Under the pieces are notes generated by a model. It was not told the DNA's origin. It worked only from the letters and a program-made list of their open reading frames with translations, and did no database searches. A stretch of 31,026 bases of DNA from a virus. Its lineage: Duplodnaviria > Heunggongvirae > Uroviricota > Caudoviricetes. Numbering within the stretch: position 1 is the first letter of the stretch; each line of letters begins with the position of its first letter. The translations under genes were made by a program, and so were the position numbers. Below, piece by piece: positions 2,392 through 28,265 of the stretch. Where the stretch lies: IMG/VR virus record IMGVR_UViG_2667527789_000013, positions 1 to 31,026 of that record; one strand, written 5' to 3'.

Positions 2392-2689
2392 CTTTAGACC
2401 TCGTTATTTTGAAAATCTGAACGACGTTACCGCGAGTTTTAAAAACCGCAGCAAACATGACGGCGTTGATAATGAGCTCTGATAAATCCACAACCATTGG
2501 TATGTGATACCAGATTGCATATACTGCGCGGACAGGGATGCTGGCTGACGCCACAATAAGGAAGTAGGCTAGCCACCCACCCCACCTCCGGTGTTGAGAT
2601 CCATTACGCTGGAAGGTTACGATGCGTATTGCTATTGCAGAACAGATAAGCGCATTAGCAATGAGTAAAAGCAGCTCATGAGTTGTCAT
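2381..2689 (-). CDS. Small membrane protein of lysis cassette (holin/antiholin-like)
   Basis: ATG at 2689 (MTTHELL...) preceded by GGGGAG SD; 2-3 predicted TM helices; overlaps holin stop by 14 nt and endolysin start by 11 nt. Track ORF 2381..2785 has a longer N-terminus I consider less likely. Confidence 0.45.
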
Positions 2690-3080
2690 CGTCTTTTCTC
2701 CCCGGTATAAAATCGCGTGGATTGTCTGAACGATGATAGAGCCAGATACCAATACGTACTGCGACAATTGCCGACACGAACGCACCAGCAGAGAAGACGA
2801 CCCCTTTCTCGAATGAATCCTGCGTGATAGTTGGGATCAGGCTGGCTATGCCGATAAGAATTGATGCAGTTGGTTTGTAAAAGAGAAGGCCGCAGAGGAA
2901 GCTGAGCATCGACAGCAGAACCCGTCGATGAACAGGATATTCTATGGCCGAGGTAACAAAAATTACCGCCCCAGCCAAAGCCCCCAAAGCCACCTCAGGA
3001 GGAACTCCAGCAATGACTGCTACAAGAGATCCCATACTAAGCCACTGATTTAAAGAACCACTTGTTGGATGAGTTAACAT
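2676..3080 (-). CDS. Holin-like membrane protein
   Basis: 134 aa with about three hydrophobic TM segments and a charged C-terminus ([18 protein letters not shown]); first gene of lysis cassette just downstream of tailspike; second in-frame Met at residue 16 suggests a possible dual-start motif. Confidence 0.55.
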   Translation of the reverse strand: MLTHPTSGSLNQWLSMGSLVAVIAGVPPEVALGALAGAVIFVTSAIEYPVHRRVLLSMLSFLCGLLFYKPTASILIGIASLIPTITQDSFEKGVVFSAGAFVSAIVAVRIGIWLYHRSDNPRDFIPGRKDDDNS

Positions 3081-3105
3081 ACATAAACCATATATAAATA
3101 AAAAT

Positions 3106-3128
3106 AACTTCTATTTTCAAAAGAAGTT
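3106..3128 (-). terminator. Weak AT-rich hairpin overlapping tailspike stop (possible partial terminator)
   Basis: Inverted repeat AACTTCT / AGAAGTT with 9-nt loop; on the minus strand followed by a T-rich tract; stem is AT-rich so probably leaky. Confidence 0.25.
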
Positions 3129-5259
3129 AAGTGCGATTTACGCGAGAAATCTCATTCCAGAATCCTCCAGCGTAGATTAATTCGATAGTGTCAAAAGCAC
3201 CTAACATAAAATCACCATTGATACGCAGATTTCCTGTCTGATTCTTCAACGTTATGTTATCAGTTGATGTATTACGTATGAGAATGACCCTCATGCCTTC
3301 ATTACCACCATTGATAGTCGATAACTCCTGTGTACCACCAGATAATTTATGAAAGTTTCTGGTAACTGTAATTTCGCCACCAGATACAGTGACCACAGTA
3401 TAAGATGAGTTAGCGATAATACCTTTATCATCAACTGATAATTTAATGTCATTATCTTTCATTACATGGAAATTTCCTGTATTGTCCCGACGAAGAATAA
3501 TACCACTAGTGGTAATTTTTGGATTATCTGTTAGCTGAATATTGGTTTGATTTTTACTTCCAGTAAAGCGTCCACCAACTTTTCCTTTCCAAAACTCCAA
3601 TCCATAGCCAGCATTACTACCAGAGACAATCACGGTTGATTCTGTAGCAGTTTCCAGTAAAGCACCTGAAATACGAATCTGGTCTGAATTAAATCTGCAT
3701 CCAAAGAAACCTATATCACCTGTATTACTGGTTCCAATTTGTTTTTTAATACCCCCAGCTTGTTGGCTACCTGCTTGTGTTGCATTCTCAAACACCACAC
3801 CAAAATACTGAACGGCTCCACATCTGTCATATTTTACAGGAACATCCAGCTTAGTCGCTAACCAGGTTCCGTGAAAAGAAATACCGTTTCTGGATCCTTT
3901 TCCTGAAGCTGAAGGAATATCAATAAAAAGGGCATGCTCCCCCCATTGTTCAACACCTTTTTCGGTATTACGACTATGATGATCATTGCCAAAAATAGCG
4001 CCTCCGTGCATATTGAATGCACTGTTAGTTCCTGTTTGATCACCAATAATAGCCAGGCCAATATTACCCATTGTACGTGTATTGATAATTGTACAACCAT
4101 CGGGATCCTGCCCCATGTGTACAATTCCAGATTTTTTAAAGTAGCCACCTACAGTAACATTCACCGGCCCTGACAAATCAGTATTGTCAAGTATCAACCC
4201 AACATCATAATCAGCAGAATTATCATTATTAGGTTGAGTTATATTCCCATGTTGATCTTTAAAGTCAAAATCACAAACGACAGAAAAATCCCCACCAAAT
4301 GCAGTAAGCCCTTTATCTTTTCGACCTACATTACGGATGCAGTAACGCATCGATGAGAATTTATCGCTTCTACCTGTAGTAAATACCTTGCTACCAGTAC
4401 CTTTGAATAAAAGGCAAGTTCCAGGCAATTTGTGCTTATTTCCTGGAACCATATAAACTTTATCATCGTTTAGTGGAAATACACCTATTTTTGCCGCACC
4501 AACACCAGTCCACTCGCACGTTTTATCAATCCCATCAGTACAAACGTAAACACCTCTTGGGAAATGTAATGTGGCACCAATTGATGTGGCTGTATCATTT
4601 GCCAGCTGAATATATGGGGTATCATCACTAAAACCATCCCCCTTCGCCCCAAAATCGCGAACACTGACGGTATCCCGCATCTTATCCTGGAACGTTCGGT
4701 ATACTGCCCCAGAACCATACTGAATAAACCAGCCAAAACCACCAACAACCCCGGCGATTGCAGCATCGACATAATTACGCATTGAGCGATTATTTACAGC
4801 GTCCTGCTCAAGTGATGGCTCTGCAAGGTTAGATATTCTGTTTTGCTTTGCATCGTAATACCTGGCAAGCAACGAAGGTTTTATGAGCGCTCGCCTGAAC
4901 CATCCGATACATTGCTGAATAAGCATGGTCAGATAGTCAAGTGCATCCTCGTGGACCTCTGGAAAAAACTTCCCCTGATTACGAAGGTCTGTCTCCTGCA
5001 CTACATCAAGTACACGGTTTATAGTGATTCTCCAGCCATCAGCAAGCGGAGATGGCAGAACCACAGAACCGCCACTATAACTACCTGCACCAGTTACCGT
5101 ATAACCAGTATCCAGTACCAGAATTGTTACATTCCCGTTTATGTCCGATACCTGAACCACAAGGTCTGAATTTCTGAAAATTCGAAACCTGTACGGGAAT
5201 GATGTCGTAACCCCGTTACCAGTGTATTCATTGTGGTCAACTTCGGTTGAGACTGTCAT
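3127..5259 (-). CDS. Tailspike protein (T7-gp17-like N-terminal adaptor + beta-helix receptor-binding/depolymerase body)
   Basis: 710 aa; N-terminus NEYTGNGVTTSFPYRFRIF matches the conserved tail-fibre/tailspike N-terminal adaptor motif of T7-supergroup podoviruses; remainder is Gly/Asn/Thr-rich repeat-like with DFGAKGDG, typical of pectate-lyase-fold tailspikes; GGAG SD before ATG at 5259. Confidence 0.8.
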   Translation of the reverse strand: MTVSTEVDHNEYTGNGVTTSFPYRFRIFRNSDLVVQVSDINGNVTILVLDTGYTVTGAGSYSGGSVVLPSPLADGWRITINRVLDVVQETDLRNQGKFFPEVHEDALDYLTMLIQQCIGWFRRALIKPSLLARYYDAKQNRISNLAEPSLEQDAVNNRSMRNYVDAAIAGVVGGFGWFIQYGSGAVYRTFQDKMRDTVSVRDFGAKGDGFSDDTPYIQLANDTATSIGATLHFPRGVYVCTDGIDKTCEWTGVGAAKIGVFPLNDDKVYMVPGNKHKLPGTCLLFKGTGSKVFTTGRSDKFSSMRYCIRNVGRKDKGLTAFGGDFSVVCDFDFKDQHGNITQPNNDNSADYDVGLILDNTDLSGPVNVTVGGYFKKSGIVHMGQDPDGCTIINTRTMGNIGLAIIGDQTGTNSAFNMHGGAIFGNDHHSRNTEKGVEQWGEHALFIDIPSASGKGSRNGISFHGTWLATKLDVPVKYDRCGAVQYFGVVFENATQAGSQQAGGIKKQIGTSNTGDIGFFGCRFNSDQIRISGALLETATESTVIVSGSNAGYGLEFWKGKVGGRFTGSKNQTNIQLTDNPKITTSGIILRRDNTGNFHVMKDNDIKLSVDDKGIIANSSYTVVTVSGGEITVTRNFHKLSGGTQELSTINGGNEGMRVILIRNTSTDNITLKNQTGNLRINGDFMLGAFDTIELIYAGGFWNEISRVNRT

Positions 5260-5362: not shown

Positions 5363-5379
5363 ATTACCTTTTGGGTAAT
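5363..5379. promoter_or_regulatory. Operator-like palindrome ATTACC-TTTTG-GGTAAT (site A)
   Basis: Perfect 6-bp inverted half-sites separated by 5 nt; one of six similar intergenic sites; in the divergent region between tailspike and the 5455 gene. Confidence 0.4.
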
Positions 5380-6481: not shown

Positions 6482-6498
6482 ATTACCTTAAAGGTAAT
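6482..6498. promoter_or_regulatory. Operator-like palindrome ATTACC-TTAAA-GGTAAT (site B) overlapping putative promoter of the 5734..6462 gene
   Basis: Perfect half-sites; read on the minus strand this gives TTGATC-N16/17-TACCTT, with the -10-like element inside the palindrome, about 20-36 nt upstream of the ATG at 6462. Confidence 0.4.
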
Positions 6499-6574: not shown

Positions 6575-6591
6575 ATTACCTTTGCGGTAAA
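6575..6591. promoter_or_regulatory. Operator-like palindrome ATTACC-TTTGC-GGTAAA (site C)
   Basis: Same half-site motif with one mismatch in the right half; lies just upstream of the structured RNA element and about 270 nt upstream of the Bro-N gene. Confidence 0.35.
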
Positions 6592-6703: not shown

Positions 6704-6859
6704 ATGCGTTAAGCACAGCTATATCCGAATTATGGTGGGCTGGGCAGGGGTCCGAAAGGACGCCGGTACCACTTAGGCCGGTACGCCAACCTTGTCCAGT
6801 TCACCACCAGTAATTGGCGTTGCGGTGGTGATTAAAATCACTAAGTGGAGATAACCACC

Positions 6860-7570
6860 ATGGCTAATGCTCAAACTGCCATCTTCAAATTTGAATCTGT
6901 TAACCCTATCCGTTCCATCATTATCGATGGCCAACCATGGTTTGTAGCCCAAGACGTTTGTAGTGCGCTGCGTATCCAAAACGTCACCCAATCACTTGAA
7001 AAACTGGATGATGATGAAAGGTCTATGTTCAACATAGGGCATGAACATCGTGCAATTTTTGACAGCCGAGTAAAAGAGATCAACATCATCTCCGAGTCAG
7101 GCCTCTACACACTGATCCTCCGCTGCCGCGACGCAGTGACACCAGGCACTATACCCTACCGCTTTCGTAAATGGGTTACAGGTGAGGTTCTTCCTCAGAT
7201 CCGCCGCACAGGAAGTTACATTAAAAACTCGCTCCCGCAGAAAGAACGCATAAAGATGGTTGCCGACCAGGTAGCCAACGCCACGGCGTCAGCAGTAATG
7301 CAGGCGATGAAGATAGAGAACAAAACCTACAGTGCCCCACTGAAGCCCGGCTACCGCAGCCTGATTCACTCGCCGTCTGGTGTTCTCGGCCTGACGGAAA
7401 ACTCACTGCTGATGAATCTGCTTAACCAGTTGCAGGACGACGGGCACGACGTATCGGGCGCGGCGGCGGAGCTGACCACCATGTTCTGCTACATCGTCGG
7501 TGTGAGCAAGTGCCTGCGTGATATCCAGACGCACGCGGAGTACATCAACGACAAGGCAGGGTTCTTCTGA
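6860..7570 (+). CDS. Bro-N domain antirepressor-like protein (Ant/KilA-type)
   Basis: ATG 6860 with GGAG SD 9 nt upstream (track ORF starts at GTG 6845); N-terminus ...FESVNPIRSIIIDGQPWFVAQDVCSALRIQNV...LDDDE matches the Bro-N motif; C-terminal ~80 aa paralogous to the 5455..5712 product. Confidence 0.7.
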   Translation: MANAQTAIFKFESVNPIRSIIIDGQPWFVAQDVCSALRIQNVTQSLEKLDDDERSMFNIGHEHRAIFDSRVKEINIISESGLYTLILRCRDAVTPGTIPYRFRKWVTGEVLPQIRRTGSYIKNSLPQKERIKMVADQVANATASAVMQAMKIENKTYSAPLKPGYRSLIHSPSGVLGLTENSLLMNLLNQLQDDGHDVSGAAAELTTMFCYIVGVSKCLRDIQTHAEYINDKAGFF

Positions 7571-7613
7571 CGGCGGCGGCACAGGGATGTGCCTTTAAAT
7601 AATTCTGTACAGA

Positions 7614-7642
7614 TTGCAGACTGTGGGTGAATAGCGTACTAT
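7614..7642 (+). promoter_or_regulatory. Sigma70-like promoter TTGCAG-N17-TACTAT for the two-gene cassette
   Basis: -35 TTGCAG (7614-7619), 17-nt spacer, -10 TACTAT (7637-7642); about 75 nt upstream of the small ORF SD. Confidence 0.4.
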
Positions 7643-7657
7643 TACCTCAAGGGTAAA
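7641..7657. promoter_or_regulatory. Operator-like palindrome ATTACC-TCAAG-GGTAAA (site F) abutting the -10 element
   Basis: Half-site motif begins within the last 2 nt of TACTAT; followed by a second inverted repeat ACGGATT ... AATCCGT (7657-7685) in the leader. Confidence 0.4.
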
Positions 7658-7716
7658 CGGATTGGTTTCATTTTTATTAATCCGTGTAATGAACTTATGA
7701 GATATGAGGTAATGTC

Positions 7717-7896
7717 ATGCGAAACGAAAAATTGCAGATGCGTAGAGCGCAAGCTGCCGCAAGACGTTCTTTCAATGGAAGCGTAGAGTACGTAAAAGTT
7801 ACTATGACAAAAGATCACGCAAGTCGCGTATCCCGCGCTTTCTTTGATTCTCGTAACAATAAGGAAAATTATGAGTTCGTCTGCGTCGCAGAATGA
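7717..7896 (+). CDS. Small basic ORF (59 aa), candidate antitoxin/regulator of the downstream gene
   Basis: ATG 7717 with GAGG SD 7 nt upstream; product MRNEKLQMRRAQAAARRSFNGSVEYVKVTMTKDHASRVSRAFFDSRNNKENYEFVCVAE; its 3' end overlaps the downstream ATG by 26 nt; below the size cut-off of the supplied ORF track. Confidence 0.35.
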   Translation: MRNEKLQMRRAQAAARRSFNGSVEYVKVTMTKDHASRVSRAFFDSRNNKENYEFVCVAE

Positions 7897-8416
7897 TAAA
7901 AATCAAATTATCAGATATAAGGGTCGAGTGTTGCATACGCAAAATTTCTCGGCCCTTTGTGCATCTGATCTTGAGCTGAAGAAAGTATCTGATGCCTTTG
8001 CCCAGTATTGGAAAACGGGATACCATCCATCTCTTGGTAAAGATGCTGCATTTGCTCGTCCGACAGAAATGCTTAAACTAAATGTCAGGCATACTCATGT
8101 CGATAACCAAGACTATATTCCAGAAGATAGTGATAAAAAACACACTGGTAAAAAATCATCTTGGGATGCATGGAAAAATATAGCGTCTGTACAAGTAAAA
8201 TGCATACCAACAAGTGATTGCTTTTTAGTTTATTCGGTAAATCACAATCGTGATGCGCTGGTTATGTTTTTTGTTGACGCAGATGCTCACAACATAACTG
8301 AGCAAGAAGAGTTTAAAGAGGCAGCAATCACAATCAGTTATCAATTCTTTGAGAAAACAAAAACAGAACCAATGCCTTTAGAAGAAGATCTTTTTTCTGA
8401 TAAATGGAAGGAATAG
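7871..8416 (+). CDS. Hypothetical 181-aa protein, possible YafO-like toxin
   Basis: ATG 7871 with AAGGA SD (track start 7844 is TTG); soluble; segments YWKTGYHPSLGKDAAFARP...LKLNVRHTHV and CFLVYSVNHNRDALVMFFV resemble, as I recall them, the conserved pattern of YafO-family ribosome-dependent mRNA interferases; visibly AT-rich coding sequence. Confidence 0.6.
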   Translation: MSSSASQNDKNQIIRYKGRVLHTQNFSALCASDLELKKVSDAFAQYWKTGYHPSLGKDAAFARPTEMLKLNVRHTHVDNQDYIPEDSDKKHTGKKSSWDAWKNIASVQVKCIPTSDCFLVYSVNHNRDALVMFFVDADAHNITEQEEFKEAAITISYQFFEKTKTEPMPLEEDLFSDKWKE

Positions 8417-8438
8417 CCCGCAGCGCGGGCTTTTTTGT
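8416..8438 (+). terminator. Rho-independent terminator after the two-gene cassette
   Basis: Stem GCCCGC / GCGGGC followed by TTTTTT, immediately after stop codon 8414-8416. Confidence 0.6.
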
Positions 8439-8470
8439 GTCTGCGGATTCCCGCCCAGGTGGCGGTGGCA

Positions 8471-25067: not shown

Positions 25068-25096
25068 TTGACATTTAACGCACGAATTATTACCTT
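25068..25096 (+). promoter_or_regulatory. Sigma70-like promoter TTGACA-N17-TACCTT for the plus-strand tRNA/Gp49-like unit
   Basis: Perfect -35 TTGACA (25068-25073), 17-nt spacer, weak -10 TACCTT (25091-25096) lying inside operator site D. Confidence 0.35.
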
Positions 25097-25105
25097 TTAG
25101 GTAAG
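25089..25105. promoter_or_regulatory. Operator-like palindrome ATTACC-TTTTA-GGTAAG (site D)
   Basis: Same half-site motif as sites A-C, E, F; overlaps the -10-like element of the putative promoter. Confidence 0.4.
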
Positions 25106-27639: not shown

Positions 27640-28232
27640 TGATTACCATCCTGACGTTCTTTGAGTCGCTTCCTGGCTGCTGCTATGCGATCAGCAATTG
27701 TCACATTCACATTAACATCCAGATGTTCTTTGAACGCGTTGACATCAACATGCTTACCAATCAGCTCAAGGTTCTTCACCTTGTCAGGCCATTTAATTTT
27801 TTTGAGGATTGTCTCTATCGAATCCTCGTTCATGTTCATGATGGTCGATGACAGATCAAAGCCACTAAGCGTAGTGCGCCAGATTTTCGGCCACTCACGG
27901 ATTGGTTTAAGGCTCCCATCGTCGTTGAGGATGTCGATCACGTCCATCTGATCGATCTCCACCAGGCGCATGAGAACGTAATCAACACTGACGCGCATTC
28001 GTTTGTTGCGCTCCTCCATCAACTCGGCAATCCGTTTTTGAATACGTTCATCGCGCATCATTACACTGGCTTTAACTGCCGCTGTATTTGGGGAGAATCC
28101 TGCGTTAATCGCTGCCTGAGTCTGGTTTTCAGGCGTTTGGATGTATGACTGGCAATAAGCCTCCTGCATTGCTGTTAGTGGCTTAAATTGCGTTGATTTG
28201 CGTTTATAGGTTTTAGGTTCAGCAGGCATCAT
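27636..28232 (-). CDS. Terminase small subunit
   Basis: About 198 aa from ATG 28232 (MMPAEPKTYKRK...) with GGTGG SD; track ORF 27636..28310 starts at TTG and runs through an upstream terminator hairpin; basic N-terminal region and position upstream of TerL. Confidence 0.55.
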   Translation of the reverse strand: MMPAEPKTYKRKSTQFKPLTAMQEAYCQSYIQTPENQTQAAINAGFSPNTAAVKASVMMRDERIQKRIAELMEERNKRMRVSVDYVLMRLVEIDQMDVIDILNDDGSLKPIREWPKIWRTTLSGFDLSSTIMNMNEDSIETILKKIKWPDKVKNLELIGKHVDVNAFKEHLDVNVNVTIADRIAAARKRLKERQDGNQ

Positions 28233-28249
28233 AACCACCGTGGTAATTG

Positions 28250-28265
28250 TTACCGTTTTGGTAAT
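28250..28265. promoter_or_regulatory. Operator-like palindrome (G)TTACC-GTTTT-GGTAAT (site E) with an extra GGTAAT half-site at 28242-28247
   Basis: On the minus strand reads TACTAT-TACC-AAAAC-GGTAAC-A-ATTACC just before the TerS SD; the same TACTATTACC-N5-GGTAA arrangement occurs at site F. Confidence 0.4.

Follow-up and report, generated by a model that had tools for sequence, protein, structure and literature searches.

The closest described counterpart of the locus reported here is the YafN-YafO pair of Escherichia coli K-12 (dinB-yafNOP; PF13957), whose toxin cleaves mRNA, with its dependence on the ribosome disputed (PMC8546651). PF_YafO is one of 13 BECR-fold toxin families in the RelE/ParE superfamily and has the gene order antitoxin-toxin (PMC11980606), and YafO toxins have also been reported without a partner, as 'orphans', in prophages and tailocin clusters (PMC10449497, PMC4684702). 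Here we analysed a segment (7614-8438) of a 31,026-nt E. coli prophage sequence (IMG/VR record IMGVR_UViG_2667527789_000013, hereafter the window), in which a gene for a 181-aa YafO-family protein is preceded and overlapped by a gene for a 59-aa protein. We consider it probable that the region is a type II toxin-antitoxin (TA)-like pair, in which a YafO-family RNase would be neutralised by a minimal, newly recognised partner and transcribed from a promoter supplied by the phage.

The window pair and the K-12 pair share the toxin family, with the motifs F-G-(K/R)-D, H-x-H, LVY and a C-terminal His, and the order of a small gene followed by the toxin gene, with reading frames overlapping or adjacent; by analogy, mRNA cleavage would be the expected activity of the window protein as well (PMC8546651, PMC11980606). 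They differ in that the window toxin has 181 aa against 132 aa in K-12 YafO, with an 18-aa N-terminal extension, an insertion of about 30 aa (79-116; W98, W101) and a conserved C-terminal tail, MPLEEDLFSDKW, that is absent from K-12 YafO; in that the 59-aa, unnamed partner has no similarity to the 97-aa YafN; and in that the window pair occupies a prophage cargo slot, whereas the K-12 pair lies in the SOS-regulated dinB operon. HigB2 of Vibrio cholerae (PDB 5mje) and other ribosome-dependent RNases of the HigB/RelE/YoeB/YafQ kind are 3-15% identical to the window toxin and lack its long insertion and C-terminal tail, and the higBA gene order is reversed relative to the window pair, HigA being a helix-turn-helix protein. 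The PaaA2-ParE2 module (paaR2-paaA2-parE2 of an E. coli O157:H7 prophage; PDB 5czf) has no sequence similarity to the window pair; ParE2 targets gyrase and not RNA, and the window has no third gene. Prophage morons and cargo hot spots, such as those for P2/P4 defence, likewise show conserved flanks around alternative, unrelated inserts at one position, and the window insert is missing from the reference phage phiV10, as in that pattern. Unlike P2/P4-type hot spots, the window slot itself provides a promoter, a phage-wide palindrome and a terminator and, unlike in defence hot spots, the alternative cargo proteins that were examined have no match among known defence families.

A long-form YafO-family protein and its small upstream partner

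The pair consists of the following elements.

7717-7896, + strand: small open reading frame (ORF), 59 aa, with the Shine-Dalgarno (SD) sequence GAGG at 7706-7709; probable antitoxin of an unnamed family (phrog_6685)
7861-7865, + strand: SD sequence AAGGA of the large gene, within the 3' end of the small ORF and in a predicted local hairpin
7871-8416, + strand: large ORF, 181 aa; long-form YafO-family (RelE/ParE superfamily) putative endoribonuclease toxin

Searches of the 181-aa protein against toxin families gave a match to Pfam PF13957 (YafO_toxin) at 25.9 bits against a gathering cutoff of 25 (E 1.1e-5; residues 46-148, profile positions 3-88 of 101) and, among phage protein families, to phrog_1651 (E 1.4e-50). 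Its close homologues (45-98% identity) were found only in Enterobacterales, and a precomputed Pfam match is present in only some of them. With a toxin-family profile made from 20 close homologues, hmmsearch against 1.84 billion representatives retrieved 72 proteins at E<=1e-3, YafO-type proteins of canonical length (131-144 aa) included, and 40 of the 62 aligned matches were Pfam YafO_toxin (best 1e-39). G56 and H76 are invariant in the alignment of these matches, while F43, D58, P64, S115, Y121 and H140 are at least 90% conserved; the conserved residues of the 181-aa protein comprise G56, K57, D58, R63, P64, H74, H76, S115, Y121 and H140, and K-12 YafO (locus L010) aligns through FGRD, HIH, LVY and PH. 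Taken together, retrieval by the family profile, the Pfam match and the shared motifs make the 181-aa protein, as judged from its sequence, a long-form member of the YafO family. Its predicted model has the RelE/HigB (BECR) alpha/beta fold. These results bore out the YafO-type patterns that a previous reading of the DNA from the letters alone (the sequence-only reading) had noticed in the large protein. A PDB sequence search with the toxin profile gave chance matches only and no YafO-family structure, an Rfam search of the region returned nothing, and a search of genome contigs with a further alignment (A5) found no relatives.

Conservation of the small ORF was followed across 49 close loci, 43 of them from viral contigs and the rest from other sources. 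An ORF of 55-67 aa stands directly upstream of the toxin start in every one of the 49, overlapping it by 8-26 nt, and ATAAGG at the SD of the large gene is almost invariant across loci. Outside the overlap, the ratio of nonsynonymous to synonymous substitution rates (dN/dS) of the small ORF was 0.15-0.5, mostly 0.2-0.3, compared with 0.04-0.13 for the toxin gene, and the distances among partners co-varied with those among toxins (Mantel r 0.82, 1/5000 permutations). These results indicated that the small ORF is a real gene. That reading had also proposed the architecture of a type II pair, and of this proposal the conserved, overlapping pair under purifying selection held up, but an operator owned by the cassette did not. 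In one viral contig (locus L052, 3001-3535), the toxin gene is frameshifted near codon 100 and the small ORF is intact.

The 59-aa protein carries a net charge of about +5, with a basic N-terminal half, an acidic tail and a C-terminal NYEFV. Its AlphaFold2 (AF2) model comprises helices at residues 4-20 (basic) and 32-45 and a loose tail, at a predicted local distance difference test score (pLDDT) of 75. No Pfam domain was detected in it, a profile search of the PDB gave chance matches only, and Foldseek with its model returned nothing, so that structure prediction yielded a RelE/HigB fold for the toxin but no fold match for its partner. The suspicion that the upstream partner is unlike the canonical YafN proved right: BLASTP of the 59-aa protein against YafN gave no alignment at E<=100, and hhalign with the partner profile gave E 0.2. 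Its family comprises 25 clusters in which every member is named 'hypothetical'. Being without similarity to Pfam domains, PDB entries or YafN, the 59-aa protein probably represents a new antitoxin family. Since no DNA-binding domain was found in it, classical autoregulation by the antitoxin is unsupported; in the model, the basic N-terminal helix (residues 4-20) might at most leave some room for nucleic-acid binding.

The annotation of the toxin is already known, the NCBI pipeline label of the large gene being 'type II toxin-antitoxin system YafO family toxin'. In the phage record TL-2011b the 59-aa ORF is 'hypothetical', and in several chromosomes it is uncalled, as the NCBI annotation pipeline PGAP often omits it. 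What is new is the conserved family of small partners, the long YafO subfamily that it accompanies and the expression slot with its phage-wide palindrome; in the literature we found nothing on this pair of toxin and partner. Recognising the small upstream ORF as a conserved partner would complete 'orphan' YafO annotations, and YafO, the least understood RelE-like toxin of E. coli, would gain a second, much smaller neutraliser for study. It is well established that toxin families swap antitoxin partners, and these findings do not overturn current ideas on TA systems; as prophage cargo the pair is of an ordinary type II TA-like kind, its partner being non-canonical.

A fixed expression slot and its phage-wide palindrome

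The DNA around the pair contains the following elements.

7614-7642, + strand: sigma70-type promoter, with -35 TTGCAG (7614-7619), a 17-nt spacer and -10 TACTAT (7637-7642)
7642-7656, no strand: palindrome TTACC-TCAAG-GGTAA, which abuts the -10, straddles -10/+1 and forms the left boundary of the variable cargo
7654-7663 / 7679-7688, + strand: leader inverted repeat TAAACGGATT / AATCCGTGTA, specific to the window
7641-7649 / 7705-7713: third inverted repeat, perfect over 9 nt, with its right arm over the SD of the small ORF
8415-8437, + strand: intrinsic terminator AGCCCGC-AGC-GCGGGCT plus T-run (stem-loop 8415-8431 with a 7-bp stem and 6 GC pairs, then T5)
5364-5378, 6483-6497, 6576-6590, 7642-7656, 25090-25104 and 28250-28264: perfect TTACC-N5-GGTAA sites
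28232-28246: TTACC-N5-GGTAA site with 1 mismatch

Matching 7 of 12 consensus positions, the slot promoter fell under the threshold of the consensus scanner and so went unlisted, and TTG(-35)-N17-TAnnAT(-10) keeps its register in 10 diverged loci, although their flanks cannot otherwise be aligned. In the same 10 loci the palindrome ATTACC-N5-GGTAA is invariant, and the SD is conserved too. Thus the weak sigma70-like promoter that the sequence-only reading had described is conserved in position, and the adjoining palindrome, the basic 59-aa ORF with its 26-nt overlap with the 181-aa ORF and the strong terminator, whose stem (8415-8431) is conserved with variable loops in related loci, were all found where it had placed them. 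The second inverted repeat, in the leader, is present as described, but its conservation was not supported: other loci have deletions, indels or other sequence there, and the fold of 7654-7688 is no better than that of shuffles (z -0.66). The third repeat, which had not been listed before, was considered as an anti-SD RNA pairing, and this was dropped, as the likely transcription start, predicted at about 7649, falls at its left arm or downstream of it.

A search of 5426 complete E. coli genomes with the cassette alone found it in full in 61, while about 180 further genomes match only its first 60-67 nt, that is, the promoter and the palindrome; in prophages with other cargo the slot promoter is 95-98% identical. 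In two such loci, L064 (strain SCU-204; 2501-3290) and L065 (strain rl0044; 2501-3240), identity to the window stops exactly past GGGTAA and gives way to unrelated cargo, namely a 210-aa protein in the former and a 55-aa plus 146-aa pair in the latter, which is closed in both by the same terminator, GCCCGCAGCGCGGGC-T6. The shared stretches correspond to window 7595-7657 and 8415-8439. Because identity ends at GGGTAA and the same terminator closes other cargo, the locus is a fixed expression slot downstream of the Bro-N antirepressor gene, with a mobile unit of roughly 7658-8416. The view of promoter, 'operator' and terminator as parts of one cassette therefore had to be abandoned: promoter and palindrome are common to the roughly 180 other E. 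coli genomes, and in both loci examined all three elements bracket unrelated cargo and are not specific to the cassette. A fixed promoter-palindrome-terminator slot with interchangeable cargo offers a handle for finding further accessory modules of prophages. As an aside, the 146-aa protein of L065 (2575-3203) aligns weakly but collinearly with the YafO profile (G-K, H-x-H, S-N-x-x-I-H-Y; hhalign E 0.04) and, on this sequence likeness, may represent a further RelE-like toxin, very distantly related, that has a small partner.

The palindrome itself is phage-wide. Where 0.55 copies would be expected in the window, TTACC-N5-GGTAA has 6 perfect ones, and several of these adjoin a -10-like hexamer, its final T doubling as the first T of the palindrome (TATCAT|TACC, TACTAT|TACC, TAAAAT|TACC). 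These sites precede the tailspike/lysis operon, the antirepressor gene, the cargo slot and the small terminase gene (terS), and the palindrome was also found in phiV10, in phage EC.W1-9 and in a Serratia prophage; our literature search found no description of it. We had considered the palindrome as an autoregulatory operator of the antitoxin and rejected this, since the same promoter and palindrome stand before unrelated cargo and five further sites occur in the prophage. Being phage-wide and shared with unrelated cargo, the palindrome is therefore unlikely to be the antitoxin's own operator.

Weighing the TA-like reading against its alternatives

Under the TA-like reading, a two-gene module of about 7658-8416 would sit as cargo between the slot promoter and palindrome on the left and the terminator on the right, and the pair would be co-transcribed from that one promoter to that one terminator. 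The 59-aa product would be made first from the shared mRNA and act as the cognate neutraliser, its conserved central helix and C-terminal tail (VTMTKEHA..VS..FYD...NYEFV) binding the toxin, while the 181-aa product, taken by analogy with E. coli YafO to be a BECR-fold RNase, would arrest translation by cleaving mRNA. Transcription would be set by the slot promoter, with TTACC-N5-GGTAA belonging to a phage-wide regulon and not to one of the antitoxin, and the benefit to the prophage might be addiction or the exclusion of other phages. The toxicity and RNase activity of the large protein, its neutralisation by the small one and the timing of the promoter are thus what we infer for this module.

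In favour of this reading are the partner ORF in all 49 close loci and in the distant relatives, its dN/dS, the co-variation of partner and toxin distances, the re-used partner motif of L053, the locus with the frameshifted toxin gene and the status of the pair as cargo, missing from phiV10 and carried by 61 of the complete E. coli genomes. Several observations weigh against it. The PF13957 score is barely above its cutoff, the hhalign match to K-12 YafO as a single sequence is weak (E 0.0066, 50 columns), and the AF2 model of the toxin is moderate (pLDDT 63), with residues 79-116 disordered. Models of NCBIfam and PADLOC matched neither the 181-aa nor the 59-aa protein, and for the latter neither a DNA-binding domain (in Pfam, PDB sequence and fold searches) nor a fold match was found. 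Furthermore, the sole conserved palindrome is common to unrelated cargo and to other phage promoters, and if it were the operator of lytic genes, the module might be silent in the lysogen, a poor fit to a TA 'moron'.

This last point leads to a reading that we hold to be quite improbable, in which the pair would be a lytic-cycle module for host shutoff or takeover, with an RNase degrading host mRNA and a small protein serving as timer or self-protection factor. It gains from the palindrome abutting the -10 of the slot promoter, which is the same as at the terS, tailspike/lysis and antirepressor promoters, with sites at 5364 (upstream of the tailspike/holin operon on the - strand), 6483, 6576 (TTGATT-N18-TATCAT|TACC), 25090 and 28232/28250 (near the start of terS). 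In addition, overexpression of the repressor of phage vB_EcoP_ZX5 lowers holin and endolysin mRNA by >99.9%, and the lytic promoters of this phage group would therefore be under one repressor, the paper itself reporting only that the repressor shuts off transcription of lysis genes (PMC9782041). However, prophages of several genera, which are expected to differ in immunity, all carry the motif unchanged, and this argues against an operator of an immunity repressor; other promoters precede the pair where it is found outside this phage type (L004/L005, L057-L060), and optional cargo that phiV10 lacks is unlikely to be needed for lytic growth. It is possible, though unlikely, that the pair is an anti-phage system acting by abortive infection or superinfection exclusion, which would defend the lysogen when the toxin is freed by shutoff of host transcription or by loss of a labile small protein. 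Consistent with this, the cargo slot holds alternative, mostly two-gene inserts, one distant member adjoins a gene of the N6_Mtase/Methylase_S restriction-modification type, and other TA modules of the RelE/ParE superfamily act in defence (PMC11980606). Yet PADLOC-DB 2.0 gave 0 matches at E<=1 for either protein of the pair and none for the alternative cargo proteins examined, and an argument from context that draws on a handful of loci is weak.

There is also a small chance that the 59-aa ORF encodes no antitoxin and serves instead as a co-factor, as a small regulator or as a leader peptide required solely to couple translation, the large protein then being non-toxic or controlled in another way. 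No antitoxin family is homologous to the small protein, and the nucleotide sequence of its gene appears constrained: in the same locus pairs its synonymous rate (dS) is 2-5 times below that of the toxin ORF (7717-7870 vs 7897-8416; e.g. 0.39 vs 2.0). RNAalifold predicted helices that occlude both ribosome-binding sites, including a hairpin across the SD and AUG of the toxin gene, and the stretch GCCGCAAGACGT (7755-7766), conserved at synonymous sites, forms a predicted pairing with the start region of the small ORF; translating the small ORF, and not its product alone, would then matter. In this structure 88% of cells are paired and 7 pairs have changed on both sides, compared with 3.3±1.3 in shuffles, which gives weak support as structure and covariation were drawn from one and the same alignment. 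Such RNA helices could explain the low dS of the small ORF. A dN/dS of 0.2-0.3 nevertheless shows the amino-acid sequence itself to be selected, the partner motif is kept at 20-30% identity in distant loci and re-used behind other N-termini, and one locus has the toxin gene frameshifted next to an intact small ORF. This modular re-use of the motif (in locus L053 and in phage EC.W1-9), together with the locus with the frameshifted toxin gene, fits the toxin-binding module of an antitoxin, and a modular layout of this kind is typical of antitoxins. We regard as rather improbable the further-reaching proposal that the small protein founds a family of minimal antitoxins (a helix and a tail with no DNA-binding domain) serving much of the YafO superfamily, with the slot promoter wired through TTACC-N5-GGTAA to the regulatory state of the prophage. 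If it were true, toxin release would be coupled to induction or superinfection and not to classical autoregulation by the antitoxin.

Distant relatives and the prophage setting

In five distant relatives, whose toxins show only 28-35% identity and come from Arsenophonus, Providencia and metagenomes, an ORF of 52-84 aa lies directly upstream of the toxin gene. These upstream ORFs align as one architecture, with a basic N-terminus, a 'V.VTMTKEHA..VS..FYD' segment and a tail of the 'NYEFV' type, and the partner motif persists in them at 20-30% identity; the Providencia partner is acidic and has no basic N-terminus. A 71-aa protein of L053 bears the motif as its C-terminal half, behind an N-terminus of another kind (hhalign E 2.7e-4). 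We do not claim homology of all YafO partners, as the small ORFs that precede P0097 and P0087, two YafO members at a greater distance, gave E 0.29-0.44 against the partner profile.

Three-gene versions of the module, with an extra upstream ORF of 62-71 aa, occur in L053 (1630-2594) and L055/L056 (1642-2603). The extra ORF carries the motif RKT(I/V)RMTDEHKQLLEKGSRILA, to which, in L053, the partner motif is joined in a second copy. By analogy with paaR2-paaA2-parE2 it may be a separate regulator; the extra ORFs of L053 and L055 look ribbon-helix-helix-like by eye only, and Pfam gives no support for this. The related phage EC.W1-9 carries a second YafO-like pair at another locus (L066, 2559-3474), consisting of a 139-aa partner and a 168-aa toxin and preceded by TTACC-CTAGA-GGTAg. 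Its toxin is 31% identical to the window toxin (hhalign E 2e-22), and the C-terminus of its partner weakly carries the partner motif (E 0.017).

Among the 49 close loci is a siphovirus-type tail module, which bears the pair between a DUF6246 gene and the tape-measure gene. Here another conserved leader palindrome, TGACG-N4-CGTCA, lies between the promoter region and the SD (L004, 3760-3800; L005, 3695-3735), and the terminator differs too (ACCCACC...GGTGGGT-T6). The neighbour of the pair in an Arsenophonus prophage (L054, 3585-4181) is an OspG-type kinase gene, and in L057/L058 the downstream neighbour encodes an 822-aa N6_Mtase/Methylase_S protein.

The window represents a phiV10/epsilon15-like (Uetakevirus-like) E. 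coli prophage, whose closest phage record is TL-2011b at 98.9% identity and which dozens of E. coli chromosomes match at 98-99%. The segment with the pair is placed between the Bro-N antirepressor gene (6845-7570; stop codon 7568-7570) and convergent virion genes; phiV10 lacks window positions of about 7581-8457 (877 bp), and the microhomology GGCGGCGGC / GGTGGCGGTGGC flanks this segment. One further element lies at its left edge.

7578-7593, + strand: hairpin GGCACA-GGGA-TGTGCC, read from the sequence, directly past the Bro-N stop codon and at the left edge of the DNA absent from phiV10

In other loci this hairpin is GGCGCA..TGCGCC, with both sides of the stem changed, and it is probably the terminator of the antirepressor gene, although it lies within the DNA absent from phiV10. 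On the other side of the slot, the window is without a 192-bp segment (junction 8439/8440; L002 5041-5232) that most of its relatives have. Located just 3' of the slot terminator, this segment of L002 encodes a 53-aa protein (WP_000708858.1), labelled in TL-2011b as a putative transmembrane-anchored protein.

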